NCBI GenBank assembly: GCA_000004695.1
Contig: CM000153.2
Location: 4,160,001 to 4,224,000, forward strand
DNA: 64,000 bases
Reading direction: 5' to 3'
Source of the DNA: Dictyostelium discoideum
Lineage: Eukaryota
Of this stretch, positions 1,180 to 30,040 are shown piece by piece (the first letter of the stretch is position 1; each line of letters begins with the position of its first letter). Below the pieces are notes generated by a model that was given only the letters and a program-made list of their open reading frames with translations, was not told where the DNA came from and searched no databases. The position numbers were made by a program, and so were the translations under genes.

Positions 1180-2133
1180 TTATTGTGGAATTTTATAAGA
1201 AACAAAAGCTTCTACTGCTTCAAATTCGGTTAAACCTAAATTATCATAAATTTTAGCGGTTTCACGATTTCTACATTCAGCACGAACCCAAAATTCTCTT
1301 TTATCAGTTCCAGGAAAAGCTGGAACATCTTTTTGAGATTGATGTTTAAAGATTGACATACGTTTTCTCATCAATTCGAAAGGAGACATTGGTACGGCCA
1401 TTTCTATTCTTTCAGGTTCCCATTCTTGCCAAGCTCCACGATATAACCAAACTTGACATTCTTTCATCCAATCTTGAGTTTTCAAACGATCGATAGCCGA
1501 TAGAATAGCTTTCAAACAAACTCTATGAGTACCATGTGGATCTGATAAATCACCAGCGGCGAAAATGATCTCTGGTTTGATTGATTCTAAAAACTGAACC
1601 ATGATTTCAATGTCTTCCTCACCCAATGGTTTCTTTTTGACAGCACCAGTTTCGTAGAATGGTAAATCCAAGAAATGAATTCTATCAGGAGCCACACCAG
1701 CATAACGGGCACCAGCACGAGCCTCAGTTTTACGTATTAACCCTTTAATTAATTGAATCTCCTTTGAATCTGGTTGACCTGGTTTCTTGGTTTTAATGAA
1801 TTCATTGACATTCTTTTCAATGGTATTCGATCTCTCCACTGATTCATTACCCAATGAAAAAAGTTTACTAAATTCACTAGCGAAATTTGCAAATCTAACA
1901 GCATCATCATCCCAAACTGCAATATTACCACTGGTTTGATATGCAACATGAACCTTATGACCTTGATCACATAAACGAATGAATGTACCACCCATACTAA
2001 TCACATCATCATCTGGATGTGGTGAAAATACAATTACTCTCTTTGAAACTGGTTTAATATTACTATCATAATCCCACATTTCATTAATAATATTAATTTG
2101 TTCAAAACTACTATTATCATGATGTTGATGTTG

Positions 2134-2198
<65 letters not shown>

Positions 2199-2992
2199 TA
2201 CTATTATCACTACTATTTGTTTTTGGTGAAGTTGGTGAAGTTGGATGATGTTGATTTGGTCTACCTCCTGGCCAACCATTAATAGTTGATTGTAAATATC
2301 TAAAAACTTTAAGATTTAAATTATGACATGGACCAAATACTTTAAGTAATGAGGATAGGTTATGGTCATGGTATTCCTCTTCCTCAAGTTTTAATATTGG
2401 TTTACCCAATTTCAATGATAACCAAATCACAGCTTTTCTAGCCAACAATGGTGACCACTTAATTGTAAGAGTTGTTCCAGTGGAATGAATAACCCATGGT
2501 TGTTTACAACGTGTAATCTCTACAGCTGCAGCCTCATCAATTATCAACTGACACTTTTGATGACGTTGAAAAATGGTTGATGGTATAGCAGGAGTGATCT
2601 CACCCTCGGTTGTCTTCTGAACTATCGATGCCTTACCCTCGGAGAAAGCCATCAATATAATTCTCTTAGAGTTAAACATTGTTGATAAACCCATTGTCAA
2701 TGCATGATGTGGAACATGTTCAGTACCAAAGAAATCACTTGCTGCATCGATTCTTGTATTTTGCTCCAAATCAACCAAACGTGTCTTTGTATTAGCCAAT
2801 GACCCCGACTCATTAAATCCAATTCTTTTTCCAATTGGAATTAACATTAAATCAATACCACCAACTTGTTCAATCTTTTCTTCATATTCTTTTAAATGTT
2901 TATCAATTTCATTCTCTGAAATTTCACCATTTAAAAAATTTATATTTTCTTTTTTAATATCAATTAATTCAAATAAATTTTCTTGCATATAT
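1180..2992 (-). CDS. NagB-II exon 2: the rest of the deaminase fold, an in-frame poly-Asn linker, and a C-terminal LmbE/PIG-L-type deacetylase domain.
   Basis: MLIPIGKRIGFNESGSLANTKTRLV / ALTMGLSTMFNSKRIILM resemble NagB (HLFMGGVGNDGHIAFNEP; ALTVGVGTLLDAEEVMIL). Downstream, VIVFSPHPDDDVISMGGT...HGTHRVCLKAILSAI carries the PIG-L motifs. The intron 2993..3081 is 89 nt. Confidence 0.8.
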
Positions 2993-3021
2993 CTAGTTAA
3001 AATAAAATTATGTTAATATTT

Positions 3022-3062
<41 letters not shown>

Positions 3063-3081
3063 TTTATATATATTTATTTAC

Positions 3082-3443
3082 CTATAAAAACTTTGAATTC
3101 TATTTCTTTCAATTGGATAATATTCATCAACATTAAAAGTGATAACATTTTTAAATGAAACTTTATTTTCTTTATATAATTTAACCAATTGATCATAAAC
3201 ACCTGATGGAGTTGAACCACATGTTAAACCTAATACAAAAGGTTTTCCATTTGAATTTGAAATTTCAATAGCCTTAACAATCTCTGATGCAATGAAAACA
3301 TTAACTTGCTCTGGATCTTGATAAACAAGTGTTTCTAATTTTTCTTTACTTTTAAATTCTTCATTACATTCAAATAATCCTGTTTCTGAATTAATTTTAT
3401 TTACTCCTGAATATTGTTGTTGTTGTTGTTGTTGTGTGGACAT
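3082..3443 (-). CDS. Glucosamine-6-phosphate deaminase (NagB-II type, long form), exon 1. Covers the Met, a poly-Gln run and the N-terminal NagB fold. Ends at a GTAAAT donor in phase 2.
   Basis: ORF 3078..3443 matches the NagB N-terminus (GKPFVLGLTCGSTPSGVYDQL, VSFKNVITFNVDEYY). The donor ag|gtaaat lies just 5' of the in-frame stop. Splicing to 2992 gives ...SFYR-YMQENLF..., colinear with E. coli NagB ...SFMHRNFFDHVDI. Confidence 0.75.
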
Positions 3444-4703: not shown

Positions 4704-6135
4704 TAATCAAAGTCAAATTTATTCTTTATCATCAAGTGGATATGAAAAACCAATTATTATTGCAAATTTAACAGGTACTCATTATGAAATGGGATTTGCA
4801 GCAGGTTATTTAATGGCACAAGAAGCTTATGAAAATTATAATGTTATGGTTGGAGCAGTTTTACCAAAAACTTGGGAAAAGGATGCATTTGAGAAATTCC
4901 TTGATTGGCAATGGAATGATTATTTAAGTAAACAAATTACTCAAAATTATTTAGATGAAATCCAAGGTTACTCCGATGGTGCAATAGCAAGTGGTTTCAC
5001 TCAATTAGGTAAAACCATTGAACGTGGTGTTGTCATTAGTAGTTTTCCAGGTGACCCAACCGAAAATATTGAATATTTATTAAGAAATGAATTATTAGGT
5101 GGTTTCTCTGACTATTTAATTAGAATCGATAGATTGGATGTTTTATCAAAAATTAAAGAAATCATTTCCAATCAAGAAGAGGAAGATACTACTAGATCTT
5201 CAAAAGGATTACAATGCTCACATTTCTCAACTTGGGGTGATAAAACTTTTAATGGTGATATGTTTAATGGTAGAAATTTAGATTGGTTAAATGGATCAGG
5301 TATTAGTAATAATAAATTGATTACATTCTATAATCCAGTTGGTCAATATTCACATGCCGCTATTGGATTTGCAGGTTTAATTGGTGCAATCGTTGGTATT
5401 AGTTCCAAGGGTATTTTCGTAGCTGAATCTGATAATGACTCTGTAAAGGTTACTTTTGATGGTTTTGCATGGTCAATGAGATTACGTTACATCATGGAGA
5501 ATGCAGCCAACATCGAGGAGGCAGTATCACTATGGGAGTCCACTAACAATACAATGGGCATGTGCCACAGTCTTGCAAGTGCAACTGAGGCATCAACCGC
5601 TGAGCATCCAGCATTCGCTTTGGAAACTATGAAGGGATACACCGCATTCTTCTCTGACAACGATCCAAACGAACATTACATTTACACTGATCCAAAGACC
5701 GGTGAACAAACTCAAATGGGTTACCCATTAGACAACGCAGTCTATCGTACAAATCATGGTTATGATGAAACTATTCGTCAAAATGAATGGGAGCCAGCCA
5801 TCCCAAATGGCGATTCATGGACTCGTTACATGCTCTTCTATAACACCTTTTCTTATTACACCGCATCCAACACCACAATCTCTGAACTCCAAGCCATCAA
5901 CATCACCTCTATCCTTGGTAACAAACATAGCATCCAAGATATCTACTCTTCACCAGCTCCATTCTACGATTGTACTAACGCTTGGATGGGTTACAACATC
6001 ATCTCTTCAACTTTCCATTTTGCATCAAATAAAATGTTTGTAGCTTTTGAAGAAGGTTTTGGTCAACAAAGAATTTGTGCTGCTTGTGGTACTTATGTTG
6101 AAGTTGATTTAACACCATTTTTTGGTCCATTTTAA
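4704..6135 (+). CDS. Peptidase C45 / isopenicillin-N-acyltransferase-like (Ntn-hydrolase) protein, exon 2.
   Basis: The 448-aa ORF continues upstream in frame to the acceptor. It is N-glycosylation-rich and secreted-type. The family assignment comes from overall similarity recalled by eye and is only moderately certain. Confidence 0.6.
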
Positions 6136-6228
6136 AAAATAGAAAAAAAATAAAAAATAAAAAAATTAAAAAATAAACACATATAAATTTATACATATAT
6201 ATATACACATTAAAAATTTATTTTATTT

Positions 6229-7686
6229 TTATTTTTTAAAATGTTCATTTAAAAATTGATCATAATCTATATTTTCACCATCATCATCATCATCAAGATC
6301 AATATCATCAATATTATAAGATTTATTATTATTATTTTGTTGATGATATTGATTTTTTAATTGATCTTGATCAATAATATCTTTATTTTCTAATTTCTTT
6401 TGTTTTAATAAATCAATTTTTTCTTTCTTTTCTAATGCTTCTTTTAATTGATATTTATAAGAATCTAATAGACTATTATTAATTTCTTCTTCTTCTTCTT
6501 CCTTTTCATTATCAATTTTATCTTCAAGATCAAATTTAGTTAAATTTTGAATTTCAATTTCTTGTTTTTCAAAATTTTCTTTTAATTCTTGTTTTTCTTT
6601 TTCTCTTTGTTCTTTTTTTAGTTTTTTTTCTTCAAGAATTAATTCTTGTTTTTTCTTTTCTTTTTCAATTCTTGTATTAATTTTATTTACTCTTTCTTTA
6701 AGTTTTTCTTCTTTTCTTTTAGTTTTACCATCATTTTCAAATTCTAAATGATCAATTGCAATTTTATTTGGAAATTCTATATAACGATTAGTGATTTTAA
6801 CAAATTGTTCAATTTGTAAATTTTGAGTTCTAATTTTTGGATCGATATCATCACCCAATAATGATTCAGCATCTTTACCAAGTGTTTTAATTGTATTTGA
6901 TAGTTTTTTACGTCTTTGAGAGAATAATTCTCTACATACAAATTCGAAATAATGATGATCTTTAACTGGTTCATCACCCAATGGTGAAATTCTTGGTTCA
7001 ATTGCAACCACTGATGCATCAACTTTTGGTGGTGGTACAAATGCGGTACCTGGTATTGAATATACTATAGAGGGTTGACACATTTGTTGTACCATAACTG
7101 ATAGACGTGAATATTCTTCTGAGCCTACTTGTGCACAGATTCTATCAGATAACTCCTTTTGAAACATTAAATACATTGGTACTCTACCAAATTCATATAG
7201 TCCTTGACGTGGAGCAATTTGACGAATCCATTTCAACATTAAATGTGTACCAACGTTGAATGGAAGATTACCAATGATTTTCACTTTGGATTTGTCTTTC
7301 CAATTTGTGGTTTCTGCACCTGCATCTCTTAATAGTTTAGCTTCATCAACATCCATCATGTTGGCCATAATTAATGACATTCTACCTCCACTTGATTCTT
7401 CTAACATTTTCAATGCTGGATAAAATCTTGGATCCATCTCTACTGCTATTACTTTTTTCGCTCCACTTGTTAATAAACTTCTTGTTAATCCACCTGGTCC
7501 TGCACCAACTTCTATAACTGTACAATCATCAAATCCACCTGATTTCTTACAAATTTTATCCGTTATATTTTTATCAATTAAAAAGTTTTGTGATAATTGT
7601 TGTTTTGCACTTAATCCAAAAATTCTAATAATTTCTTGAATTTTTGGCATTGGTGGTAATGATGTTGTTAAATTTTTAATTGTCAT
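6229..7686 (-). CDS. tfb1m: Mitochondrial dimethyladenosine transferase / transcription factor B1 (KsgA/Dim1 family) with a Lys/Glu-rich C-terminal tail.
   Basis: LPPMPKIQEIIRIFGLSAKQQLSQNFLIDKNITDKICKK...VIEVGAGPGGLTRSLL is colinear with human TFB1M (LPPLPTIREIIKLF...LSQNFLLDLRLTDKIV...VYEVGPGPGGITRSIL). The SAM-binding motif is present. It is a single 485-aa ORF. Confidence 0.85.
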   Translation of the reverse strand: MTIKNLTTSLPPMPKIQEIIRIFGLSAKQQLSQNFLIDKNITDKICKKSGGFDDCTVIEVGAGPGGLTRSLLTSGAKKVIAVEMDPRFYPALKMLEESSGGRMSLIMANMMDVDEAKLLRDAGAETTNWKDKSKVKIIGNLPFNVGTHLMLKWIRQIAPRQGLYEFGRVPMYLMFQKELSDRICAQVGSEEYSRLSVMVQQMCQPSIVYSIPGTAFVPPPKVDASVVAIEPRISPLGDEPVKDHHYFEFVCRELFSQRRKKLSNTIKTLGKDAESLLGDDIDPKIRTQNLQIEQFVKITNRYIEFPNKIAIDHLEFENDGKTKRKEEKLKERVNKINTRIEKEKKKQELILEEKKLKKEQREKEKQELKENFEKQEIEIQNLTKFDLEDKIDNEKEEEEEEINNSLLDSYKYQLKEALEKKEKIDLLKQKKLENKDIIDQDQLKNQYHQQNNNNKSYNIDDIDLDDDDDGENIDYDQFLNEHFKK

Positions 7687-8228: not shown

Positions 8229-9290
8229 AGATATTACCAACAATAACAACAACAAATGAAATTGAAAGTATACCATGTATTGATTTTTCAATATTAAAAA
8301 ATAATGGTAATGATAATAAAAATGCTTAAGAATTTATTTCAAAAGAAATTAAAAAAGCTTTTATAGAATATGGCTTCTTTTATATTTTAAATCACAGTAT
8401 TGAACAATCTTTAATTGATAGATTAATGGAATTATCAAAAAAGTTTTTTTCATTACCATTAGATGTTAAAATGAAATATAAAATTAATATTGGTGAAAGT
8501 GAATCTAATTTAGGTTATTTTTCACTTGGTCAACATGGAACAGATTATAAAGAGGGTACCTTTTTTAAATTTAGAGACTAATAATAATAATAAAAAAAAT
8601 AATAATACATCAAAAAGAATATCAGAATTATATCCAACAAAAGAAGAAGAAGAGCTATATGATATTGTAGGATTTAAAGATACTTGTGAAACTTTTATGA
8701 AATGTTTAAATCGATTTAGTATTGAGTTGATGGGATTGATCACAATAAATTTAAATTTACCAGAAGATTATTTTAATGATTTATATTTAAATCATCCACA
8801 TTTTAATTTAGGTTTATTAAAATATATGTCATTTGATGATGATGGTAATGGTAATGGTAAAATTACTAAATTTGGTAATGAACCTCATTGTGATTGGGGT
8901 TTATTTACATTACTTTATCAAGATGATGTTGGTGGTTTACAAGCTTTATCAAAATCAACTGGTCATTGGATAAATGTCAAACCAATTAGTGGTTCACTCA
9001 TTTTCAATATTGGTAATGTGATGGAAATCATTACAAGAGGTTATTACATTTCAATGTTTCATCAAGTAATTTATAATACATCTGGTAGAGATCGTTATTC
9101 ATTCCCATTCTTTTTTAATCCTCAACTTGGTAAACCAATAGTTCCAATAAATAATTTAGAAACAACAACGACAACAACAATAACAAAAATTGGAAATTAT
9201 ATAAAAGATCCAAATATATTAAATTTCAAAGGAACTTATAATGATTATCATAACATTGAAATGAATAAATTGTTTAAAAAACAAAATTAA
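8229..9290 (+). pseudogene. 2OG-Fe(II) oxygenase, tandem copy A. The 5' half is decayed and the 3' 254-codon ORF (8526..9290) is still open.
   Basis: About 90% nucleotide identity to copy B. The start codon is lost (aaaagatatt versus aaaatgatat). There is an in-frame TAA (aatgcttaagaa) and a frameshift near 8520-8580. Confidence 0.6.
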
Positions 9291-9564: not shown

Positions 9565-9820
9565 TTTTTGATATTTAAAAAACAAATTTCGTTAATATTA
9601 ATTTTAAAAGGAAATATTAAATATTAATTTTAAATATTTAATACAAATGTAAAACTAATATATAAATTCTAATTTATTGTTTTTAATTTTTTAATTTTTT
9701 GTTTATTAAATAATTATTAATTTTTTTATTTCCATTCACACAAACAATAATTTTTCATTTTTTTAATTGTGTTAATTGAATACTCTTGTGTGGAAAAAAA
9801 AAAAAAAAAAAAAAAAAAAA

Positions 9821-10846
9821 ATGATATCACCACCAACAACAACAAATGAAATAGAAAGTATACCATGTATTGATTTTTCAATATTAAAAAATAATGCCAA
9901 TGATAATATAAATGGTAAAGAAATTATTTCAAAAGAAATTAAAAAAGCTTGTATAGAATATGGCTTCTTTTATATTTTAAATCACAGTATTGAACAATCT
10001 TTAATTGATAGATTAATGGAATTATCAAAAAAGTTTTTTTCATTACCATTAGATGTTAAAATGAAATATAAAATTAATATTGGTGAAAGTGAATCTAATT
10101 TAGGTTATTTTTCAATTGACCGACATTATACAGATTATAAAGAGGGTACCTTTTTAGATTTAGAGACTAATATTAATAATGCATCAAATGGAATATCAGA
10201 ATTATATCCAACAAAAGAAGAAGAAGAGCTATATGATATTGTAGGATTTAAAGATACTTGTGAAACTTTTATGAAATGTTTAAAACAATTTAGTATTGAG
10301 TTGATGGGATTGATCGCAATAAGTTTAAATTTACCAGAAGATTATTTTAATGATTTGTATTTACAAAATCCAAATTTTATTTTAGGTTTATTAAAATATA
10401 TGTCATTCGATGATGACGGTAGTGATGATAAAACCACCAAATTTGGTAATGAATCTCATTGTGATTGGAGTTTATTTACATTACTTTATCAAGATGATGT
10501 TGGTGGTTTACAAGCTTTATCAAAATCAACTGGTAATTGGATAAATGTCAAACCAATTAGTGGTTCATTCATTTTCAATATTGGAGATATGTTGGAAATC
10601 ATTACAAAAGGTTATTATACTTCAATGTTTCATCAAGTAATTTATAATACATCTGGTAGAGATCGTTATTCATTCCCATTCTTTTTTAATCCTCAACTTG
10701 ATAAACAACTAATTCCGATAAACAATTTAGAAACAACAACAACATCCAAAATTGGAAATTTTGTAAAGGATCCAAATATATTAAATTTCAAAGGAACTTA
10801 TAATGATTATCATATTATTCAAATGGAAAAATCATTTAATAAATAA
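9821..10846 (+). CDS. 2-oxoglutarate/Fe(II)-dependent dioxygenase (isopenicillin-N-synthase-like DIOX_N plus 2OG-FeII_Oxy), the intact copy.
   Basis: ATG at 9821. IPCIDFS...KEIKKACIEYGFFYILNH is the DIOX_N signature. The HCDWSLFTLLYQDD...MFHQVIY...RDRYSFPFF iron triad with RxS is present. The ORF is open and 341 aa. Confidence 0.8.
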   Translation: MISPPTTTNEIESIPCIDFSILKNNANDNINGKEIISKEIKKACIEYGFFYILNHSIEQSLIDRLMELSKKFFSLPLDVKMKYKINIGESESNLGYFSIDRHYTDYKEGTFLDLETNINNASNGISELYPTKEEEELYDIVGFKDTCETFMKCLKQFSIELMGLIAISLNLPEDYFNDLYLQNPNFILGLLKYMSFDDDGSDDKTTKFGNESHCDWSLFTLLYQDDVGGLQALSKSTGNWINVKPISGSFIFNIGDMLEIITKGYYTSMFHQVIYNTSGRDRYSFPFFFNPQLDKQLIPINNLETTTTSKIGNFVKDPNILNFKGTYNDYHIIQMEKSFNK

Positions 10847-13676: not shown

Positions 13677-14823
13677 ATATTTATTTAAATTCAAATAGTT
13701 TTATGAATAATGTTTCAAAATTATTTGGTAATGAACATCCATTATCAAAATATGGTAATGGTGTTTTAATGATGGCAGATGAAAGTTTTAAAGATTGGAT
13801 GGATAATCAATCACCAAACTTTCAAATGTTGGGTGACTATTGTTATGATTTAAATATTGTAAAATCTAAAATCGATAAAGTCGATCAACTATCATTAGAG
13901 TTATCCCATCAAAATTTAGATGAATACATTCAATTAAAGGATGAAGTTTTTAGAGATGTTTCAAATCAATTTCAAGCAAGAGTAACAAGATTCGATATAC
14001 CTTTAATCAATACTCAATTCTCTCTCCCAAGTTTATATCAATGTTTAAATTCAATACATGAAACAAATGGTACTGAACAATTACAACAATCAATTGAAAT
14101 TGCTAATCCTGTAATCTCTTTATCACCTGATAATACAATTGCAATTAATACTGTAAATGATAATAATAATAATGATAATAATAGTAATAATAGTACACCT
14201 GAAATTATGACACGTGTTGGTATACCACCACAATCACAAGCACAACAACCACAAGCACAACAACAACCACCACAACAACAACAAAGAGTTAATACAGCAT
14301 CAACATTTTCAAGTCCAACAATGTTTTTATCTAAACCTGTAAAAACAGAGGTTACATATGCTGCACCACCAAAAACTTTACAAAAATTACCTGGTTCAAG
14401 AGAGTATACTAGACAATCTGTACCAACACCACAACAACAATCACCTTTAAAACCTATAGCTAGACCAAATTCTTTACCAAATAATAATAATATCAACACT
14501 ACAGCAACACAACCACCATTAAGACCAACACCAGTACCAACACCAGCACCAGTTGTTGAGCAACCAACACCAAGTGCACCACCACCTCAAAATCAACCAC
14601 CAATTATAATGGGTAGACAAGTTTTACCTCATAATCCAAATAGTAGTAATAATAATAATTCAATGGATAGTGGTAGTGGAGTTATTTCACAACCACTAAG
14701 ACCAGTACCCCATAAAAGTATTCAAAAAGGCTTCGTAGCTAGTAATGTTAATAAACCTCCTTTATCACCTTCTACTTCAACTCCAAATTTACAACAATAT
14801 CAACCACCACAACAATCACAATC

Positions 14824-14869
<46 letters not shown>

Positions 14870-15148
14870 CCTTTATCACTATCAAATTCAACTCCAAATT
14901 TATATCAAACACAACAACAACAACAACAACAACAATCACCTCTACCTCCAAAACCAAGACCATCTGTACAATTATCATCATCAACATCTACTTCACAACC
15001 ATTAAGACCTCAACCACCAATTTCTCAACAACAAGAGCAACCACCATCTAGACCAAGATCATTATCACTATCTCAACAACAAACACCAACCCAATCATTT
15101 GCAAGACCTTTACCAACAGCATTAAACAATAACAATAATAATAATTAA
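13677..15148 (+). CDS. P1 exon 2: a conserved N-terminal domain (DIYLNSNSF..., FDIPLINTQFSLPSLYQCLNS) followed by a long Pro/Gln/Ser/Thr-rich low-complexity tail.
   Basis: Acceptor aaatag at 13675-13676. The reading frame is continuous into ORF 13703..15148. Colinear with P3 exon 2. Confidence 0.6.
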
Positions 15149-16991: not shown

Positions 16992-18160
16992 ATATTTACT
17001 TAAATTCAAATAGTTTTTTAAATAATTTATCAAATTATTATCATAATAGTAATAATAATAATAATAATAATAATGGGTATGGGACGACTACTGAACAACA
17101 TCCATTAGGTGATTATAGTAATCAAATTTTAATAAATGTTAATAAAACATTCGAAGAATGGGAATTTAATCAATCTAGTCATTTTCAATCATTGAATGAT
17201 TATTGTAATCAAATTGAACAAATCAAATCAAAGATTGAAAGATTAGATAAACAAATGAACACAGAATCACAAGAATATCAAACTTTAAAAAATCAAATAT
17301 TTAAAGATGTTCAACAACTTTTCGATTCCAGAGTTAATCAATTTGATATACCATTAATTAATATACAATTCTCATTCAATAGTTGTTTACAATCTTTAAA
17401 TTCAAATCATAATGATTCTTCATTCTTACTTCAACAACCAATTAATTTTAATAATCCCGTACAATCATTACAACCATTAAATAATAATAGTGGTGTTACA
17501 CCATTAAGACATGCACCACCTGTAAATAATCATCTACAACAAATACCAAGACCAACCACTTCATATACACCACCAAAACAATATGTACCATCACCTCAAC
17601 AAAAACATCATCAATATACACCACCTCAACCATATACACCACCTCAACAACAACAACAACAACACCAATATACACCACCTCAACCATATAATCCACAACC
17701 ACAACAATATCAAGAACAAATGTATGAAAAATCACAAGAACAACCACCAGAACAACCACCAAATTCAGGACCAAGAAAAGGAAAATCACAATTGAAACAA
17801 ATTGAAAGACCCACTCAAATAGAGCTACCTGATAAATCAGTGATTGAACCAAATCTAAAGAGAAAGCCAGGTGACTTTTTAAGAGATCCTAATGCTCCAC
17901 GTTTTGTTCCTGCTTCATCTCAACAGCAGCAACAACAACAACAACAACAACAACAACATAGTAATAAACCTTCAATGGAACATCATTCAATGTCATTAAG
18001 TGAATCTTATAAACAAAAGGTTGTACTTTCAAATGATATAAATGAGCATGGATCACAAGGAAGTGATAATCATTCCAACACCACTTCTAAACCACCTGTG
18101 AGAAAATTAGATAATACAATAAGAACACCACCATCAAGACCTACTCCTTTACCAAAATAA
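16992..18160 (+). CDS. P3 exon 2 (DIYLNSNSFLNN..., FDIPLINIQFSFNSCLQSLNS, then a Pro/Gln/Tyr-rich tail).
   Basis: Acceptor ttag at 16990-16991. The frame is continuous with ORF 17192..18160. Exon 2 begins with the same ATATTTAyTTAAATTCAAATAG sequence as P1. Confidence 0.6.
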
Positions 18161-20253: not shown

Positions 20254-21976
20254 TGAATTTTCAAATGGAAGAATTAATAGTTTTAATTTTATAAATGCAA
20301 CAACATTGACAATGGAAAATAATGGTATGGCAGGTACGATACCAACAGCTTTTCCTGGTGATAGGAACATTAATCTAAAGGGTAATAAGTTGGTAGGAGA
20401 AATTGATGAAAGTTGGTGTGGTAATTTATTTGATATTAGTGATAACTATATAAGTGGTGAGCTTCCATCATGTTTTAAATGTCATTATTTACAACCATTA
20501 ATTAGTTCAACACTATCTGGTAATAGATTTAAAAATTTCGATCCAAATAATTTAGAACCATGTTTAGATTTAGAATTAAATTTAGAATATAATCATTCTT
20601 TCAACAGATCATTAACATTATATGGTAAAAATCTTGGTCCATTTGATAATTCATTAAGAATTTATGATATAGATAATATTGGACCTATTACTATTATAGC
20701 ATGCAAAGAATATAAGATTAGAAAGTTTACTTGGGTACCGGGAGATGCACCAAAAGCAATTAATTTAACTTTTCCTTTTTTACCACAAGGCCCAAGAACA
20801 TTTGAAATCTCTGCATATAATGAATTTTTACCACATATCGATAGTATAATTAGATATTCAGATTATTTTATTATTAGTGGTAAATACTTTGCATATAATA
20901 AGAGTGTTATTAATGTTTTAATTTCAAATCATTCATGTTCAATTATAACAAGTAATTTCAATGAAATTCAATGTTATCTTTCAAATTCAAATCAAATAAT
21001 AAATAGTAATAGCAATAAATTAATTGCAAGTATTATTCAAGTTATGAATGTTTCAAGTACATTTAATTTCACAGCGAATCAAGCATGTAATGGTAATAAT
21101 TGTCCAATCGCAGATTGTAATAAATATGGTGAATATAATTATGAAAGTGGTGTTTGTGATTGTTATTCAAATGAATGGAGAGGCTATTCATGTGAATTAA
21201 AATCATTAAATTGTTTAAGTAATGATTGTAGCGGTAATGGCTATTGTAATAGTATCATTGGTAAATGTCAATGTAATAAAAATAGAGCATTCGATGATTG
21301 TAGTGGTATATTATGCAATGATGGTAATGGTTGTTTTAATGGAGGTAATTGTAATTTTCAAATTGGGGTTTGCAATTGTTCATCCAAATGGATTGAAAGT
21401 TCAGGATGTGCAACACCCAAACAATCAATTGATTCACAACAATTAGTACAAACAAAAAACAATCAAATATTAACATTAATTGGTTGGTTTGGTAATATTA
21501 ATATATTTTTAACAGTATTAATCGATGGTAAAATTTGTGACATCACTTCAAATAATAATGAAACCATTCAATGTATTCCACCAAATTATCATTGTGATTT
21601 CATAAAGACCTCATCATTAGAATTATCAGTTTCTCAAAATAATTACATATGGAATGGAGTTTATAATCCAATATTTATTAATGGCTGTAGTAATAGCAAT
21701 GAAGGCAGTAGTGGTATCAATAACAGTTATAGTAATAGCAATGAAAAAGAAAATTCATCATTATCATACAAAAATCAATCTTTAGTTTTAATCCTATCAA
21801 TTGTGTTATCTTTAATTTTATTAGGTTTATTAGGTTTAGTTTTCTTTAAAAAATTAGTCATAAAAAATAATTATTTAAATATAAATAATATTGAAAATAA
21901 AATAAGACCGAGTGAATATGATAATGATCAACCAGATGAATTTTTAAAAAATAAAATTAAATTAATTGACCTTTAG
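20254..21976 (+). CDS. Unit 1 exon 7: plant-type LRRs (LTMENNGMAGTIP...LKGNKLVGEID...FDISDNYISGELP), tenascin/EGF-like Cys repeats, a Ser/Asn stalk, a TM helix and a short cytoplasmic tail.
   Basis: ORF 20306..21976, open upstream to the acceptor aaattag at 20252-20253. Confidence 0.7.
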
Positions 21977-22504
21977 AGGCAATACCCCAAATTAAAAAAA
22001 AAAAAAAAAAAAACAGGTTCCCTTAGAGATACTCCAATTAGTTGGGTGGGTTGTTTTATTTCTCAAATTTAATTGTTTTTTTTTTTTTTTTTTTTAGTTG
22101 CTTCATTTTTACAAATAAATAATAAAAAATTTTATTCAAAAAAAAAAAAAAATTAATTAGTCAACCCTTAAAAAATATATGAATTCAAGGTGAATCTAAC
22201 ATATTTTAATATTTATATGGTCGCAAAATAAAAAAAAGGCAGAGGGATTTCACTGAAAGTTTTGGTGCATTTTTTAAAAAAAATAAAAAATAAAAAAAAA
22301 AAAAATTTAAAAAAAAATCTTAAAAGCGATAAAACTTTTCTTAGGATGAAAATTTTTTTATTTTTTTATTTTTTTTTTTTTTTTATTTTTTTTTTTTTCG
22401 AATTTAAAAATATCTCAAATGATTTAACAAGTGCGGGCAAAACAAAATTGATTTTTTTTTTTTTTTGTTTTTTTTTTTTTTTTTTTTTTAAAAAATCAAA
22501 AGGG

Positions 22505-22589
22505 ATGAAAATGAAAAGTAGAGGGTTCATATTATTTTTTATAATCATACTTTCAAATTTAAGCCAAGCAACTCTAGTTGAATCAGAAT
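22505..22589 (+). CDS. Unit 2 exon 1 (signal peptide MKMKSRGFILFFIIILSNLSQATLVESEC).
   Basis: ATG at 22505 (alternative start at 22511). GTAAAA donor in phase 1. Confidence 0.55.
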
Positions 22590-22664
22590 GTAAAAATAAT
22601 AGAATTTTAATAACACAAATAAATAAATAAATATTAATTCTTTTATTTTTATTTCTTATATTAG

Positions 22665-22887
22665 ATAAATGTTTATATAATTTATTAAGTAAAATTTTAA
22701 AAGTATCAAAAAACTTTTATAAAGAATCTAATAATAGATATGCATTTTGTCAGACTGCTGATAAATCAGATTTTCTTTGGGCACAATGTTCTGAAGGTTC
22801 AGTTGAAAATATTTTTTTAGGTTCCAATAATAAAAGTACAATTTTTTCAAACAATGATTTTAATTGTTTTTCTTCTTTGCAAAATAT
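22665..22887 (+). CDS. Unit 2 exon 2 (...KCLYNLLSKILKVSKNFYKESNNRYAFCQT...NDFNCFSSLQNM).
   Basis: Acceptor atattag at 22662-22664. GTAAGT donor at 22888. Confidence 0.55.
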
Positions 22888-22967
22888 GTAAGTCCTAACA
22901 ATAACAATAATAATAAATATCATTTTATTAATACTTTTTTTTTTTAAAAATAAAAAATAAAAAAAAG

Positions 22968-23318
22968 AGAAATATTTTTTAAATACAAATTTGAAAGAAA
23001 TTTTTTATTTGGGTTTTCAAGTAATTTATTTAATTTTAAATCACATTCTTCAGATGAATCATTAATTGATATGGATGTCAATGCTAACAAAACAATTTCA
23101 ATTAAATATTTATATATTAATCAATTAATAATTAAAAGAGATTTTAATATTTATTTTTCAAATTTTGTTAATGTCCGAAATTTTGAAATTGACACACTCC
23201 AATCAAACTACCAAATTAATTATATAAATGATTTGGTTAGTTTTAAATGTAATTTTGATACAATTTCATTTTCTTCAAATAATATACCATCAATGAATAA
23301 TATACTAGTAAATAATTT
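22968..23318 (+). CDS. Unit 2 exon 3 (LRR-like, includes ORF 23071..23322).
   Basis: The frame is open from the acceptor. GTAAGT donor at 23319. Confidence 0.55.
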
Positions 23319-23405
23319 GTAAGTTTTTATTATTCTATTCTTTTTTTTTTTTTTTTTTTTAATATGAAATAATACTAAATTAATTAATCTATATTTATAT
23401 AATAG

Positions 23406-23546
23406 ATATATAAAACTACTTTCAAATTTTAATATTGATTCATTTTTCAACTTTTCAACAAATACAAACATTGGTACTATAAAATTAAATTCATCAGATC
23501 CATCAATGCTTTTTCCATTTCCACCCCCTTCTTCTGTTCAATCATT
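23406..23546 (+). CDS. Unit 2 exon 4.
   Basis: YIKLLSNFNIDSFFNFSTNTNIGTIKLNSSDPSMLFPFPPPSSVQSL. Followed by an intronic (TTA)n tract. Confidence 0.5.
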
Positions 23547-23560
23547 GTAATTATTAATTA

Positions 23561-23648
<88 letters not shown>

Positions 23649-23672
23649 AACTATTATATTATTATAAATAAG

Positions 23673-23744
23673 AGTAATAAATTATCTAATAGAGAAGCCA
23701 TTGAATTTTATTGATTTATCTAAATTTGAAAAATTAATTTATTT
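23673..23744 (+). CDS. Unit 2 exon 5.
   Basis: LVINYLIEKPLNFIDLSKFEKLIYL, 72 nt, GTAAGT donor. Confidence 0.5.
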
Positions 23745-23825
23745 GTAAGTATTTTTTTATATTTTAAAATGTTTCTTTTCTAAACTTTTCACTAACTTTT
23801 TTTTATAATTTATAATTATTAAAAG

Positions 23826-23903
23826 AAAAATTCCAAATGTTGGAGTTTTATTTAATGTAGATGGTGAATTACCATTCATTAATATGCAAAATATTTATAA
23901 TTT
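23826..23903 (+). CDS. Unit 2 exon 6.
   Basis: LKIPNVGVLFNVDGELPFINMQNIYNL, GTAAGT donor. Confidence 0.5.
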
Positions 23904-23985
23904 GTAAGTATTTTTTTTTTTTTTTTTTTTTTTTTTCAGAATTTAATGATGATGATATTTAACTATTTTACATATTTTTAATTAG

Positions 23986-25732
23986 CGAGTTTTCAAATGG
24001 GAAAATCAATTATTTAAATTGGACAAAATTACCAACCGAAGTGGGATATTTAACAATGGAAAATAATGGTATGACAGGTACGATACCAACAAAGTATCCA
24101 GATTATTTATCCTACCTTTATGTAAAGGGGAATAAGTTGACAGGAGAAATTGATGAAAGTTGGTATGGTAAATTATTTGATATTAGTGATAACTATATTA
24201 GTGGTGAGCTTCCATCATGTTTTAAATGTCATTATTTACAACCATCAATTAGCTCAACACTATCTGGTAATAGATTTAAAAATTTCGATCCAAATAATTT
24301 AGAACCATGTTTAGATCTAGAATTAAATTTAGAATATAATCATTCTTTCAACAGATCATTAACATTATATGGTAAAAATCTTGGTCTATTTTTTAATTCA
24401 TTTAGTATTAGCAGTGTTAATAATGCTTTACAACCTTTGCCTATTGATATATGCAAAGAATATAAGATTAGAATGCGACCTACAGAACCAGGTGATGCAC
24501 CAAAAGCAATTAATTTAACTTTTCCTTTTTTACCACAGGGTTCAAAAACATTTCAAATCTCTGCATATAATGAATTTTTACCACAAATCGATAGTATAGT
24601 TAGATATTCAGATTATTTTATTATCAGTGGTAAATACTTTGCATACAATCAGAGTGTAACTACTGTTTTAATTTCAAATCATTCATGTTCAATTATAACA
24701 AGTAATTTCAATGAAATTCAATGTTATCTTTCAAATTCAAATCAAATCATTAATAATGAAGAATTAATTACAAGTATTATTCAAGTTATGAATGTTTCAA
24801 GTAAATTTAATTTCAGAGTGAATCAAGCATGTAATGGTAATAATTGTCCAATTGCAGATTGTAATAAATATGGTGAATATAATTATGAAAGTGGTGTTTG
24901 TGATTGTTATTCAAATGAATGGAGAGGCTATTCATGTCAATTAAAATCATTAAATTGTTTAAGTAATGATTGTAGCGGTAATGGTTATTGTAATAATATC
25001 ATTGGTAAATGTGAATGTAATACAAATAGAGTATTCGATGATTGTAGTGGTATATTATGTAATAATGGTCATGGTTGTTTTAATGGAGGTAATTGTAATT
25101 TTCAAAATGGAGTTTGCAATTGTTCATCCAAATGGATTGAAAGTTCAGGATGTGCAACACCCAAACAATCAATTGATTCACAACAATTAGTACAAACAAA
25201 AAACGATCAAATATTAACATTAATTGGTTGGTTTGGTAATATTAATATATTTTTAACAGTATTAATCGATGGTAAAATTTGTGATATCATTTCAAATAAT
25301 AATGAAACCATTCAATGTATTCCACCAAATTATCATTGTGATTCCATAAAGACCTCATCATTAGAATTATCAGTTTCTCAAAATAATTACATATGGAATG
25401 GAACTTATAATCCAATATTTATTAATGGCTGTAGTAATAGTAATGAAGGCAGTAGTGGTATCAATAACAGTTATAGTAGTAATAGTAATGAAAACAATCA
25501 AAAAGAAAATTCATCATTATCACCCAAAAATCAAATTCTAGTAATAATCATATCAATTATATTATCTTTAATTTTATTAGGTTTATTAGGTTTAATTTCC
25601 TTTAAAAAATTAATCAAAAAAAATAATTATTTGCATTTAAATAATATTGAAAATAAAATAAGGCCGAATAAAGATGATAGTGGTCAACCAGATGAATTTT
25701 CAAAGAATAAAATTAAACTAATTAACCTTTAG
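23986..25732 (+). CDS. Unit 2 exon 7: LRR, EGF-like repeats, TM and tail. The spliced protein is about 898 aa.
   Basis: ORF 24041..25732 extended to the acceptor aattag at 23983-23985. All seven exon phases are consistent. Confidence 0.7.
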
Positions 25733-26250
25733 AGGTAAAATCCCAAAAAAACAGAAAAAAAAAAAATAAAAAAAATAAAAAAAATAAAAAAAAAAAAAAA
25801 AAAATTTGAAATTATCTATATCTGTGGGTCTTGATAATATCCATTATTTTATTCACAATAATCATTTTTTTTTTTTTTTTTTAATTTTGGGTTTTTTTTT
25901 AATTTATTTTTAGATTTTTTTTTTTTTTTTTTGGCTTTTTTTTTTTAATGGGCTCAAAAAAAAAAAAAAAAATTAAAATAAAATAAAATAAAACCCAAAA
26001 ATAAACTTTTTTAAATAAACAAATAAATAGGACACATAATCAAACTCCAAAATTTTTATTTTTAATTTTTTTTTGTTTAAGCATATTTTATTATTAGGAG
26101 CCGCATAAAAATAAAAAAAATAAAAGTAAAAAAAAAAGAGGCGACAAACCCACCAGCGCCCATAAAATTACTTTTCACCACTTTAATGTGAAGTGAACAA
26201 AAAAAAAAAATTGTTTTGTTTTTTTTTTTTTTAAACTCAAAATCTTTGTG

Positions 26251-26332
26251 ATGAAAAGAAGAGGGTTTATTCTATTTTTCTTTTTATTCATATTTTTTGA
26301 ATTAAACCAAACAACTATTGTTGGATCAGAAT
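26251..26332 (+). CDS. Unit 3 exon 1 (signal peptide MKRRGFILFFFLFIFFELNQTTIVGSEC).
   Basis: Colinear with the other units. GTAACT donor. Confidence 0.45.
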
Positions 26333-26395
26333 GTAACTATATTAAATTTATTTATTTATTATTAAAATTCTAATTATTATTTTTTTTTTTATTAG

Positions 26396-26621
26396 ATAAA
26401 TGTTTATATAATTTATTAAGTAAAATATTAAACGTATCAAAAAACTTTTATAAAGAATCTAAAAATAGATATGCACTTTGTCAGACTGTTGATAAATCCG
26501 ATTTTATTTGGGCATATTGTAATGAAGAAGGTTTAGTTAATGATATTGTGTTGCGTGGTGATAATAAAAGTACAATATTTTCAAACAATGATTTTAATTG
26601 TTTTTCTTCTTTGCGAAGTAT
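26396..26621 (+). CDS. Unit 3 exon 2 (one codon longer than in the other units).
   Basis: Acceptor attag, GTAAGT donor. Confidence 0.45.
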
Positions 26622-26723
26622 GTAAGTAATAAAAAATAAAATTAATTATAGTTTATTATAATTTATTATTATTATAATTTTAATACTTAATTATATCATT
26701 TTATTTATATTTTTCAAATAAAG

Positions 26724-27074
26724 AGACATATTTTTTAATTATAAATTTAAAAGAAATTTTTTACTTGGATTTTCAAATAATATAGTTAATTTCAAATCAC
26801 GTTCTTCAGACGAATCATTAATTGATATGGATGTCAATATTAACAAAACAATAGCAATTCAAATTTTAAATATTAATCAATTAATAATTAAAAGAGATTT
26901 TAATGTTTATTTTTCAAAATTTGTTAATGTCCGAAATTTTGAAATTTACACACTACGATCAAAACATCAAATTAATTATATAAATGATTTGGTTAATTTA
27001 GGATGTAATTTTGATATAGTTTCGTTTTCTTCGAATAATATACCATCAATGAAAAATATACAATCAAATACATT
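26724..27074 (+). CDS. Unit 3 exon 3 (includes ORF 26827..27078).
   Basis: 351 nt, the same length as in unit 2. Confidence 0.45.
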
Positions 27075-27142
27075 GTAAGTTTTTATTTTATTTTATTTTA
27101 TATTAAATAATATTAAATTAATAACCTAAATTTATTAAATAG

Positions 27143-27283
27143 AAATATAAATTTAAATTCAAATTTTAATATTGATTCATTTTCCAACTTTTCAACATAC
27201 ACAAAAATAGGTGCTATAGAATTAACTCCATCAAATCCATCAATGATTTTCCCATTCCCACCCCCATCTTGTGTTAATGTTTT
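27143..27283 (+). CDS. Unit 3 exon 4.
   Basis: 141 nt. Followed by a long intronic (TTA)n tract. Confidence 0.4.
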
Positions 27284-27300
27284 GTATTTATTATTTATTA

Positions 27301-27361
<61 letters not shown>

Positions 27362-27451
27362 CATTATTATTATTATCATTATTATTATCATTGTTTTTTA
27401 TTATTTATTATTGACTATTGATTTATTTTTAACTATTGTTATTATATAAAG

Positions 27452-27523
27452 AAAAATAAATTATCAAATAGATAAACCATTGGATTTTATTGATTTATCT
27501 AAATTTGAAAATCTGTATGATTT
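27452..27523 (+). CDS. Unit 3 exon 5 (weak GTGGGT donor).
   Basis: 72 nt. The donor is non-consensus. Confidence 0.35.
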
Positions 27524-27605
27524 GTGGGTATTTTTTATTTTTAAATAATTTTTGTTTTCTAAACTTTTCACTAATTTTATTTTTATAATTTTTAATTATT
27601 AAAAG

Positions 27606-27689
27606 AAAAATACCAAATGTTGGAGTTTTATTTAATGTAGATGGTGAATTACCATTCATTAATATGCATGTTATGGATACTAGTATTTT
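27606..27689 (+). CDS. Unit 3 exon 6.
   Basis: ...FINMHVMDTSIL, GTAAGT donor. Confidence 0.4.
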
Positions 27690-27720
27690 GTAAGTTTTTT
27701 TTTATTATTTATATTCTTGT

Positions 27721-29097
27721 TTTCATTGTAATTATGGTACGATACCAACAAAGTTTCCAGATAAATTATCAATTCTTTATTTAAATGGTAATAAGTTGAT
27801 AGGAGAATTCAATGGAAATTGGTATGGTGAAGATTTTGATATTAGCGATAACTATATTGATATTTATCTTCCATCATGTTTTAAATGTCACTATTTACAA
27901 CCATCAATTAGCAGACCAATATCTGGTAATAGATTTAAAAATTTCGACCCAAATAACTTAGAACCATGTTTAAGCATAGATTTAAATCTTTCATATAATA
28001 ACTCCACTGATCAATTACTATTGTATGGTAGTGATCTTGGATTTCCAACATCAATCATGATATTAGATAACCCAATTTTAGTATTTGATTATGGTGAAAA
28101 ATGTAAGGAAATTAGAATTTTAAAGCCTAGATGGAAGATAGGAGAAGTACCAAAAGCAATTAATGTTACATTTCCTTTTTTACCACAAGGTCCAAGAACA
28201 TTTGAAATCTCTGCATATAATGAATTTTTACCACAAATCGATAGTATAGTTAGATATTCAGATTATTTTATTATCAGTGGTAAATACTTTGCATACAATC
28301 AGAGTGTAACTACTGTTTTAATTTCAAATCATTCATGTTCAATTATAACAAGTAATTTCAATGAAATTCAATGTTATCTTTCAAATTCAAATCAAATCAT
28401 TAATAATGAAGAATTAATTACAAGTATTATTCAAGTTATGAATGTTTCAAGTAAATTTAATTTCAGAGTGAATCAAGCATGTAATGGTAATAATTGTCCA
28501 ATTGCAGATTGTAATAAATATGGTGAATATAATTATGAAAGTGGTGTTTGTGATTGTTATTCAAATGAATGGAGAGGCTATTCATGTCAATTAAAATCAT
28601 TAAATTGTTTAAGTAATGATTGTAGCGGTAATGGTTATTGTAATAGTATTATTGGTAAATGTCAATGTAATACAAATAAAATATTCGATGATTGTAGTGG
28701 TATATTATGTAATAATGGTAATGGTTGTTATAATGGTGGTAATTGTAATTTTCAAAATGGAATTTGTAATTGTTCATCCGAATGGATCGAAAGTTCAGGA
28801 TGTGCAACACCCAAACAATCAATTGATTCACAACAATTAGAACAAACAAAAAATGATCAAATACTAACATTAATTGGTTGGTTTGGTAATATTAATATAT
28901 TTTTAACAATACTAATCGATGGTAAAATTTGTGATATCACTTCAAATAATAATGAAACCATTCAATGTATTCCACCAAATTATCCGTGTGATTTCATAAA
29001 AAACTCATCATTAAAATTATCAGTTTCTCAAAATAATTACATATGGGATGGGATTTATAATCCAATATTTATCAATGGTTGTAGTAGTAGTGAAGAC

Positions 29098-29191
<94 letters not shown>

Positions 29192-29457
29192 ATAGTAATA
29201 GTAGTAGTAATAGTGGTAGTAATGAAAACAAAAAAGAAAAAGAAAATTCATCATCTAAAAAATTAATTATAATAAGTTTATCAATTTTATTTTCTTTAAT
29301 TTTATTAGGTTTATTAGGTTTTGGTTTCTATAAAAAAACAATTAAAAATAATTATTTAAATTTAAATTATATAAAAATTAAAATAAACTCGAATGAATAT
29401 GATGATGACCAACGAGATAATTTTTCAAAAAATAATATAAATTTAGTTAACCTTTAA
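27721..29457 (+). pseudogene. Unit 3 terminal exon. It has lost its acceptor and first 30-35 codons through a deletion, so the gene is probably a pseudogene or truncated. The rest is intact: LRR, EGF repeats, a 40-residue poly-Ser stalk encoded by (AGT)n, TM and tail.
   Basis: Compared with units 1, 2, 4 and 5, about 100 nt around the acceptor are missing. The intron runs straight into ...GTIPTKFPDKLSILYLNGNKL.... No AG in the required phase exists between 27690 and 27800. The track start at 27796 is a TTG, not an ATG. Confidence 0.5.
29096..29225 (+). repeat. (AGT)n coding microsatellite that gives a stalk of about 40 Ser in tandem-gene unit 3.
   Basis: Perfect AGT repeats. Absent or short in the other units. 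Confidence 0.85.
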
Positions 29458-29883: not shown

Positions 29884-29965
29884 ATGAAAAGAAGAGGTTT
29901 TATACTGTTTTTCTTTTTATTCATATTTTTAAAGTTAAACCAAACAACTATGGTTGAATCAGAAT
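29884..29965 (+). CDS. Unit 4 exon 1 (signal peptide).
   Basis: ORF 29884..30267 start. GT donor in phase 1. Confidence 0.5.
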
Positions 29966-30040
29966 GTAATATTTTAAATTTATTTATTTATTATTTTATT
30001 ATTAAAATTCTAATTATTATTTTTTTTTTTTTTTTATTAG

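Follow-up and report, generated by a model that had tools for sequence, protein, structure and literature searches.

A NagB-LmbE fusion gene of probable bacterial origin in Dictyostelium discoideum with a remodeled deaminase loop

Introduction

Two enzymes act in turn on N-acetylglucosamine 6-phosphate (GlcNAc-6-P), namely, NagA and then NagB, and the typical eukaryotic counterpart of the latter, GNPDA, is a short form. A different deaminase of glucosamine 6-phosphate (GlcN-6-P), NagB-II, has the SIS fold and occurs in Shewanella and its relatives (PMC10201695). Deacetylases of the LmbE-like superfamily are defined by an HxD1D2 plus H metal motif, in which D1 is the general base, according to a review (PMC4101496). 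The combination of a NagB-like and an LmbE/PIG-L-type domain in one long protein has been described as nagB-PIGL in anaerobic ciliates, where it was judged to be a bacterial transfer that arrived together with anmK and murQ (PMC13198582). Here, we analyze a gene of this architecture in the slime mold Dictyostelium discoideum. It occupies positions 1180..3443 of a stretch of 64,000 nucleotides (assembly GCA_000004695.1, contig CM000153.2, positions 4,160,001 to 4,224,000), which we refer to as the window; the gene and all of its features given below lie on the minus strand.

Results

The 724-amino-acid (aa) product consists of a NagB-like half and an LmbE-like half. Pfam assigns Glucosamine_iso (PF01182) to residues 43-265 (E = 4e-14) and PIG-L (PF02585) to residues 441-620 (E = 3e-18; 67.1 bits versus a gathering threshold of 28.2; profile positions 1-128 of 129), and this pair of domains is present in all of the top 120 homologs. 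The protein matches the NCBIfam profile NF002557, “glucosamine-6-phosphate deaminase-like protein,” with 885 bits versus a cutoff of 384 (E = 2.4e-266; profile reached to 651 of 653), while the score for the NagB equivalog TIGR00502, 223.7 bits, stays under the trusted cutoff of 236.9. Neither an SIS nor an Amidohydro domain was matched among the Pfam and NCBIfam hits of the 724-aa protein. These profile matches place it in the long NagB-LmbE family NF002557, which is already named and is biochemically uncharacterized. The preliminary description of this DNA had used the name NagB-II, which denotes the unrelated SIS-fold deaminase (PMC10201695); long NagB-like/LmbE family (NF002557) is the fitting label.

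We built an AlphaFold2 model from a 69-sequence alignment, with a mean predicted local distance difference test (pLDDT) score of 80. The NagB-fold domain (residues 40-282; 2509..3326), which is split by the intron, is identified by Pfam, by NagB chains in the PDB (E = 2e-44), and by Foldseek, where it matched 3hn6, 1dea, and 2bkv with E values of 1e-20 to 3e-23, template modeling (TM) scores of 0.85-0.94 (targets), and root mean square deviations of 1.7-2.0 Å. It is followed by a conserved helical middle domain specific to the long family (residues 283-366, helices at 302-357; 2257..2508), in which pLDDT is at least 78 up to approximately residue 360 and W311, K318, K322, and Y328 are invariant. 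A low-complexity linker (residues 367-435; 2050..2256) contains a poly-Asn run at residues 387-407 (window positions 2134-2196) and has pLDDT values below 50 over residues 369-430; it is missing from the bacterial homologs, which are 630-665 aa long. The remainder (residues 436-724; 1183..2049) comprises the LmbE/PIG-L-type domain identified by PF02585 and a family-specific C-terminal extension. The motifs PHPDDD and HGTH, which had been noted in a C-terminal region of 200 residues, are both present, yet this region spans about 290 aa. A Foldseek search of solved structures found none containing both halves.

The NagB half keeps the motifs GxxxGSTP, FNxDEY, and FNE, as well as the counterparts of Escherichia coli Asp72 (D106), Glu148 (E182), and Lys208, with D106 and E182 invariant. 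D106, the counterpart of the catalytic base Asp72, is part of NVDEY at residues 104-108 (3120..3134) and does not vary in the 69 sequences. The catalytic loop, PIGKRIGFNES (residues 173-183; 2806..2838), is remodeled: GxG(N/R)(D/N/T)GH has become PIGK--R, with two residues deleted, His143 gone, and Arg177 at the His143 position. HMMER comparison with solved NagB structures places “ipigk..rigfnesg” opposite “GGIGPdgHIAFNEPG,” and the same result was obtained from family alignments and a check of the DNA reading frame. We take the role of His143 to be ring opening. In NagB, this residue has been described as the catalytic histidine (PMC4008608). Agreement with NagB “motif by motif,” as had been proposed for the N terminus, therefore breaks down at this loop, from which His143 is missing, and in the subthreshold TIGR00502 score.

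Loss of the histidine follows lineage. The loop reads GIG(R/K)(T/N/S)GHIGFNEP in bacteria, where His is kept in 77 of 78 sequences, and GIG(R/K)(T/S)GHIGFNEP in Physarum-type sequences, where it is kept in 13 of 13. In Clastostelium, the loop is GKAGQLAYNEP, with Gln in place of His, and in dictyostelids it is PIGK--RIGFNE(A/S), His being deleted in every sequence (kept in 0 of 9). To compare the halves, we considered columns with at least 93% conservation across bacterial and Physarum-type sequences together and counted as changed those differing in essentially all dictyostelids. By this count, 14 of 77 columns have changed in the NagB domain and 1 of 108 in the LmbE domain (Fisher P = 2e-5 for 14/77 versus 1/108), the middle domain having 2 of 24. 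Among the altered NagB sites are 40 and 41 of the phosphate loop as well as loop positions 137, 142, 143, and 149. Identity to bacteria over the NagB domain is 0.49 for dictyostelids, 0.48 for Clastostelium, and 0.60 for Physarum-type sequences; the corresponding values over the LmbE domain are 0.66, 0.65, and 0.63. Between D. discoideum and Dictyostelium firmibasis, the ratio of nonsynonymous to synonymous substitution rates (dN/dS) is 0.076 for the NagB half, 0.017 for the middle domain, 0.039 for LmbE, and 0.40 for the linker. As judged from the alignments, the dictyostelid NagB half is without the catalytic histidine, and both its phosphate loop and its catalytic loop are remodeled. It is under strong purifying selection and is not decaying. 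We regard impairment of the deaminase half as fairly probable.

A further departure concerns the whole family. The position of E. coli Arg172, a phosphate-binding lid residue, is occupied by Asp or Ser (AASDFF) across the long family, in bacteria and eukaryotes, and phosphate binding in its NagB half may differ from that of the textbook enzyme.

Individual sequences deserve mention in this regard. Slime molds are not alone in having a degenerate deaminase half, for a NagB catalytic residue has also disappeared from two bacterial long forms: L051 has Met in place of Asp72, and L063 has Gly in place of His143. The Clastostelium recurvatum protein (P0013) has the His143-to-Gln change with no deletion and shares several dictyostelid-type changes (Leu at 107, Pro at 137). 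In the NagB and full-length alignments, it groups with dictyostelids, but not in LmbE (24/200). This likeness may stem from shared ancestry, old paralogy, or convergence.

The LmbE half retains its deacetylase motifs. PHPDDD, at residues 445-450 (2005..2022), contains the predicted metal ligands H446 and D449 and the predicted general base D448. HGTH, at residues 607-610 (1525..1536), contains the predicted third metal ligand, H610, and H607, which corresponds to the catalytic His in the HxDH motif. According to the review, the first ligand is found 5 residues past the start of Pfam PIG-L; for the third, the distance to the domain end is 11 residues in five of six enzymes taken from Table 1, Mca having 10 (PMC4101496). 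We assigned H610 as the third ligand by subtracting this offset from the end of the PIG-L profile at approximately residue 621, just as the first-ligand offset leads to H446; sequence alignment to solved structures by phmmer and profile search aligned the first motif alone. The second and third ligands are 161 residues apart, compared with 97-148 in the review (PMC4101496), because the AlphaFold2 model has a helical insertion of about 70 residues between them. H446, D448, D449, H607, and H610 are invariant in the 69 sequences, along with about 100 further positions of the LmbE half. Absence of the catalytic His and Asp, which had been named beforehand as a finding that would refute the preliminary reading, is thus not observed.

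Among solved structures, archaeal diacetylchitobiose deacetylases come nearest to the LmbE half (E = 4e-7). Foldseek matched it to the Dac structures 8bgo and 4xm1 with E values of 1e-10 to 5e-9 and TM scores of 0.63-0.65 (targets), which are low because of the insertions, and recovered the Rossmann-like alpha/beta fold of LmbE enzymes. With 1 of 108 conserved columns altered and a dN/dS of 0.039, the LmbE half is fully conserved in dictyostelids.

The gene neighborhoods of bacterial homologs bear on the ancestral function. We examined 83 bacterial loci, up to 8 kb on each side, clustering reading frames and naming the common clusters by Pfam. The recurrent neighbors are MurQ-like SIS etherases (14 loci), AnmK (10), AmpG-like MFS transporters (10), DeoR regulators (8), SusC (8), ROK sugar kinases (8), and GH3 proteins (7). 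In four loci, MurQ shares the strand of the fusion gene and ends 58-68 bp upstream of it; three of these have AnmK another 0.9-1.0 kb upstream. A ROK kinase ends 15-72 bp upstream in four other loci. In Fulvivirga, the order is SusC, SusD, ROK kinase, fusion gene, GH20, an HGSNAT-like gene, and a sodium:solute symporter. The product of MurQ is GlcNAc-6-P; NagK-type ROK kinases yield the same compound, and the ROK kinases found here probably do so. No NagA homolog was found within 8 kb on either side by motif search or by tblastn with an approximate E. coli NagA query. A NagA-like role fits the LmbE half, since the fusion gene stands at the NagA-NagB step, after MurQ or a kinase, with NagA not found nearby.

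The nearest match to the NagB half in the bacterial proteins is the active, monomeric NagB of Bacillus subtilis (E = 1.3e-55), and both have the loop GIGR(N/T)GHIGFNEPG. Because this B. subtilis-type loop is shared with the bacterial long forms, Asp141 of E. coli is not universally required, and the bacterial long forms look, from their motifs, like catalytically competent deaminases. Our literature searches found no biochemical characterization of the fusion family and no Dictyostelium-specific work on the fusion. The locus retrieved from Flavobacterium johnsoniae CI04 (L069, 4437-9920) has a different setting, with a LacI regulator, a GHMP-kinase-like gene, and a nucleotidyltransferase gene followed by the long gene, pyrG, and yidC. 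It is not the chitin utilization locus and hints at a link to sugar-1-phosphate or nucleotide-sugar salvage. The “NagB” of the chitin utilization locus, Fjoh_4557, may be a long form too.

We next consider how the fusion is distributed. Among the 120 best matches in a search of 5.8 billion proteins, the closest come from nine dictyostelids (67-97% identity), followed by Clastostelium recurvatum, Physarum polycephalum, and Physarum-like environmental transcripts (54-59%). Bacterial homologs, at about 50% identity, belong to Phycisphaerae, Pirellulales, Cytophagales, Flavobacteriales, Balneolaceae, and Ignavibacteria. The named eukaryotes in this set are dictyostelids, Physarum, and Clastostelium only, all from one amoebozoan group. 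A scan of one genome per species found the gene in at least 598 bacterial (GTDB) species, mainly Bacteroidota and Planctomycetota. Neighbor-joining trees of 101 sequences, essentially unrooted and bootstrapped 200 times with the bacterial-like P0021 left out, recovered the slime mold genes as one clade apart from the bacterial ones in 200/200 replicates for LmbE, 200/200 for the full length, and 158/200 for NagB, which is the outcome of the separate domain phylogenies that the preliminary description had proposed. This clade and Planctomycetota were separated from Bacteroidota in 162/200 bootstraps; a NagB tree with an E. coli outgroup gave little resolution.

The slime mold genes form a single clade whose proteins are about 50% identical to bacterial ones, which makes a bacterial origin likely. 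The bacterial ancestry suggested earlier thus holds up well, as the architecture is widespread in bacteria, many of them Bacteroidota. The trees and matches are most likely explained by one old transfer from bacteria to the ancestor of the slime molds (Dictyostelia, Myxogastria, and Clastostelium). We are highly confident of family membership and bacterial origin taken together. The acquired gene would then have become a normal host gene, gaining an intron, AT-rich codons, and a poly-Asn linker.

Two side observations concern the homolog set. An environmental Physarum-like transcript contig (L085) carries at 2227-2328 a chimeric tail that repeats its own coding sequence, probably an assembly artifact; a check for a poly-A tail found this chimeric tail at the contig end. 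Several proteins of approximately 270-295 aa (P0215, P0243, P0148, P0161, and others) contain the whole LmbE-type half at 39-49% identity and have no room for NagB. Standalone proteins of this LmbE subtype therefore probably exist, and some may be truncated gene calls.

The gene model rests on splice enumeration. Of all GT..AG pairs tried between the two long reading frames, two gave in-frame joins, and just one of these, 3443..3082 plus 2992..1180, kept the motif SFYRYMQENLF; its product is exactly 724 aa. Exon 1 (3082..3443) starts with ATG at 3443-3441, encodes codons 1-120 plus 2 nucleotides (nt), and includes a poly-Gln run at residues 4-10 (window positions 3414-3434). The intron (2993..3081) is 89 nt long, has GT..AG borders, and contains 4.5% G+C, and exon 2 (1180..2992) ends at a TAA stop at 1182-1180. 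An annotated D. discoideum ortholog (P0001; KAM9958011.1) is 97% identical and has the identical splice junction, the main difference being the length of the poly-Asn run, a repeat that varies among strains. The length of about 724 aa predicted in the preliminary description was borne out by enumeration, translation, and this junction, as were the intron and the poly-Asn linker; the base composition of the gene is host-like.

The D. firmibasis ortholog (L084) has an intron of 106 nt at the equivalent position. Exon 2 has 33% G+C, with 0.195 at third codon positions (GC3); like the 4.5% of the intron, these values match those of neighboring genes. The flanks are eukaryotic and include AAT/NTN-hydrolase-like, rRNA adenine dimethylase, TIG/EGF array, Mot1-like, RRM-R3H, and WD40 genes. 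The AAT/NTN-hydrolase-like gene and a gene for a 485-aa protein of the rRNA adenine dimethylase family adjoin the fusion gene (window positions 4789-7686; positions 1580-4864 of L084), and the order RrnaAD-AAT-fusion gene is the same in D. firmibasis as in the window. The NagB-like/LmbE fusion is a real native host gene.

Elsewhere in the window, on the plus strand, five tandem paralogs at 20306-37221 are spaced by about 3.7 kb, share 69-91% protein identity, and have IPT/TIG and EGF-like matches. Weaker relatives are located at 13703-15148 and 17192-18160, and the five paralogs resemble a Tgr-like array of cell surface genes. Adjacent reading frames at 8526-9290 and 9776-10846 (plus strand) are 80% identical to each other across 244 aa. 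A 1,624-aa reading frame at 39309-44183 (plus strand) with HEAT, DUF3535, SNF2, and Helicase_C matches corresponds to a Mot1/BTAF1-like ATPase.

Discussion

The explanation that we consider best overall, and hold to be probable, is that the dictyostelid fusion is a GlcNAc-6-P deacetylase of bacterial derivation with an impaired NagB-like half. In the ancestral protein, the LmbE half would bind a metal ion through H446, D449, and H610 and use D448 as a general base to hydrolyze the N-acetyl group of GlcNAc-6-P supplied by MurQ or a GlcNAc kinase; the NagB half would then convert the resulting GlcN-6-P to fructose 6-phosphate and ammonia. From context and homology, this sequence of deacetylation and deamination is the most likely activity of the bacterial and ancestral proteins. 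The dictyostelid protein would be mainly an LmbE-type GlcNAc-6-P deacetylase, a nonhomologous analog of NagA, whose NagB-like half may be crippled or serve as a noncatalytic sugar-phosphate-binding or scaffold domain. This half may still catalyze weakly or in an altered way, bind the substrate, have a regulatory part, or keep the protein together. That the LmbE half acts on GlcNAc-6-P we rate slightly above even. Only tentatively do we propose the stricter version for Dictyostelia and, apparently, Clastostelium, in which the deaminase half is now a conserved domain that is noncatalytic or has a changed chemistry and the LmbE half is a eukaryotic GlcNAc-6-P deacetylase unrelated to NagA/AMDHD2.

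Deamination could be provided by the other D. discoideum gene annotated as a GlcN-6-P deaminase. A study of ammonia and tip formation lists DDB_G0278873 and DDB_G0286195 as glucosamine-6-phosphate deaminases in its supplement and reports partial mound arrest for mutants of both (eLife RP104855). The existence of a second annotated deaminase gene would make the loss of this activity in the fusion tolerable. The physiological role of the protein would be the use of amino sugars freed from ingested bacterial cell walls.

Alternative readings of the enzyme must be weighed against this one. According to the preliminary description, one polypeptide carries out two consecutive steps, and the D. discoideum protein would be fully bifunctional, deacetylating GlcNAc-6-P and deaminating GlcN-6-P. 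The NagB fold is intact (TM scores of 0.85-0.87), the counterparts of Asp72, Glu148, and Lys208 are kept, the dN/dS of 0.076 signals constraint, and the bacterial and Physarum-type homologs, with the B. subtilis-type motif GIGR(N/T)GHIGFNEPG, are probably bifunctional. Yet the histidine described as catalytic (PMC4008608) is deleted in nine of nine dictyostelids and replaced by Gln in Clastostelium, changes also affect the phosphate loop (positions 40 and 41) and loop positions 137, 142, and 149, TIGR00502 scores under its cutoff, and the NagB domain has evolved faster specifically in the lineages lacking the histidine. Two steps on one polypeptide are therefore doubtful here, while the motifs kept in the bacterial and Physarum homologs suggest that the claim probably holds for them. 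We judge somewhat less likely still that LmbE uses another GlcNAc substrate (for example, free GlcNAc or chitobiose, on the model of the archaeal Dac pathway, or a different N-acetylhexosamine phosphate) and that the NagB-like half binds or processes a different product. This would agree with the archaeal diacetylchitobiose deacetylases as best solved relatives (E = 4e-7), with the Asp or Ser at the Arg172 position (phosphate binding in E. coli NagB) in the whole long family, with the standalone LmbE-subtype proteins, with reports of NagA in some long-form carriers, and with the wide variety of GlcNAc-core substrates that all characterized LmbE-like enzymes use according to the review (PMC4101496). 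On the other hand, fusion to a GlcN-6-P deaminase fold suggests GlcN-6-P as a shared intermediate, the operon position is right after the GlcNAc-6-P producer MurQ or a ROK sugar kinase, and NagA was not found in those clusters within 8 kb per side.

As to origin, the fusion might instead be an old eukaryotic gene that was inherited vertically and lost from most lineages. The slime mold clade does have a long branch to itself, the trees do not place it robustly within any one bacterial phylum, the NagB tree with the E. coli outgroup is poorly resolved, and the composition of the gene is fully host-like. Nonetheless, we consider vertical descent quite improbable: all named eukaryotes among the 120 best matches belong to one amoebozoan group, carriers include at least 598 bacterial species from several phyla, and the eukaryotic clade falls with Planctomycetota and apart from Bacteroidota in 162/200 bootstraps. 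Typical eukaryotic GNPDA is short (about 290 aa in the preliminary description). In addition, the ciliate copy of the fusion was independently called a bacterial transfer (PMC13198582). An artifact, whether contamination by bacterial DNA, a gene model joined in error, or a pseudogene in decay, has a negligible chance of being the explanation. Nothing favors it except the bacterial-like architecture, while the G+C, GC3, and intron composition resemble those of the neighbors, the flanking genes are typically eukaryotic with gene order shared with D. firmibasis, the reading frame is intact with dN/dS of 0.02-0.08 across all three folded domains, and orthologs are present in nine dictyostelid genomes. 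We rejected contamination and pseudogene readings on the grounds of host composition, eukaryotic flanks, synteny, and purifying selection.

Several points weigh against a deacetylase with an impaired deaminase half derived from bacteria. A NagB half that still catalyzes, through a modified mechanism, would account equally well for its dN/dS of 0.076; it keeps the counterparts of Asp72, Glu148, and Lys208. The nearest LmbE relatives with a solved structure use unphosphorylated substrates, chitobiose and GlcNAc, and our literature search found no enzyme assay of any family member. The search for NagA used an approximate E. coli query and covered 8 kb per side. The trees are neighbor joining only and essentially unrooted, so that the donor group and the direction of transfer are inferred. 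Bacteroides thetaiotaomicron presumably offers, as BT_0258, an example of the long form. This species has NagA genes (PMC13634575), and a separate NagA has been reported from F. johnsoniae (PMC5127042), so that in at least some carriers LmbE is not needed as a NagA substitute and may have another substrate. The earlier suggestion that LmbE stands in for NagA is thus favored by the bacterial neighborhoods and weakened by carriers reported to have both.

What is new here is the lineage-specific loss of the catalytic histidine in dictyostelids, within an already known family. From the preliminary description, the architecture and the bacterial ancestry stand, while the motif-by-motif match to NagB and the name NagB-II do not, and it is doubtful whether this protein carries out both steps. 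Members of the long NagB-LmbE family abound in Bacteroidota and Planctomycetota, where they are found in chitin, mucin, and peptidoglycan-recycling loci. If the LmbE half is a GlcNAc-6-P deacetylase, the family would be a nonhomologous replacement of NagA, metabolic reconstructions that seek NagA alone would be incomplete, and the slime molds would offer a before-and-after pseudoenzyme series, with His in Physarum, Gln in Clastostelium, and a deletion in dictyostelids. Loss of the histidine under purifying selection would be a simple example of a fusion enzyme in which one domain has taken on a different task. Bacterivorous amoebae appear to have gained the gene early and kept it, which fits feeding on bacterial cell walls. 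Given the mound-arrest phenotype of both annotated GlcN-6-P deaminase genes, it matters which of them makes ammonia.

Among known systems, the bacterial long NagB (NF002557/PRK02122; Bacteroidota and Planctomycetota, including F. johnsoniae L069) is the nearest to the Dictyostelium protein. Both have the identical three-part architecture at approximately 50% identity, the helical middle domain is common to both, and the LmbE motifs FSPHPDDDVISMGGT and AAGDLSDPHGTHRVC are identical. The Dictyostelium gene differs in adding an intron, a poly-Asn/His-rich linker, and a poly-Gln N terminus, and its loop lacks the TGH of GIGRTGHIGFNEP. Moreover, the bacterial long genes lie in clusters that resemble polysaccharide utilization loci (SusC/D) or that serve peptidoglycan recycling, whereas the neighbors of the Dictyostelium gene are unrelated. 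The same fusion in the ciliates, again bacterivorous protists, was read as serving amino sugar and peptidoglycan catabolism; these belong to another eukaryotic lineage, in which the fusion co-occurs with transferred anmK and murQ, and Amoebozoa are unmentioned in that paper (PMC13198582).

With NagB/GNPDA (EC 3.5.99.6), the protein shares the fold, GxxxGSTP, the Asp of FNxDEY, Glu148 of FNE, and Lys208; the monomeric B. subtilis type (PDB 2bkv/2bkx) is nearest to the bacterial long forms, and E. coli 1dea serves as the reference. It differs from these enzymes in lacking His143 through a 2-residue deletion, in having about 440 extra residues, and in scoring under the TIGR00502 cutoff, and the whole long family lacks an Arg at the Arg172 position. 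With the LmbE-like superfamily (PIG-L, MshB, BshB, Dac 8bgn, 3we7, and 4xm1), it shares the HxDD plus H motif and the Rossmann-like fold, and GlcNAc-type substrates are to be expected for this half. Unlike these proteins, it has a helical insertion of about 70 residues, HGTH in place of HxDH, the fusion to a NagB fold, and a conserved C-terminal extension of about 100 residues (YRGAWQEW, FKHQSQKD, REFWxRAExRN). Finally, the reaction proposed for the LmbE half is that of the amidohydrolase NagA, and the one proposed for the ancestral NagB half is that of the SIS-fold NagB-II, in both cases with no homology.

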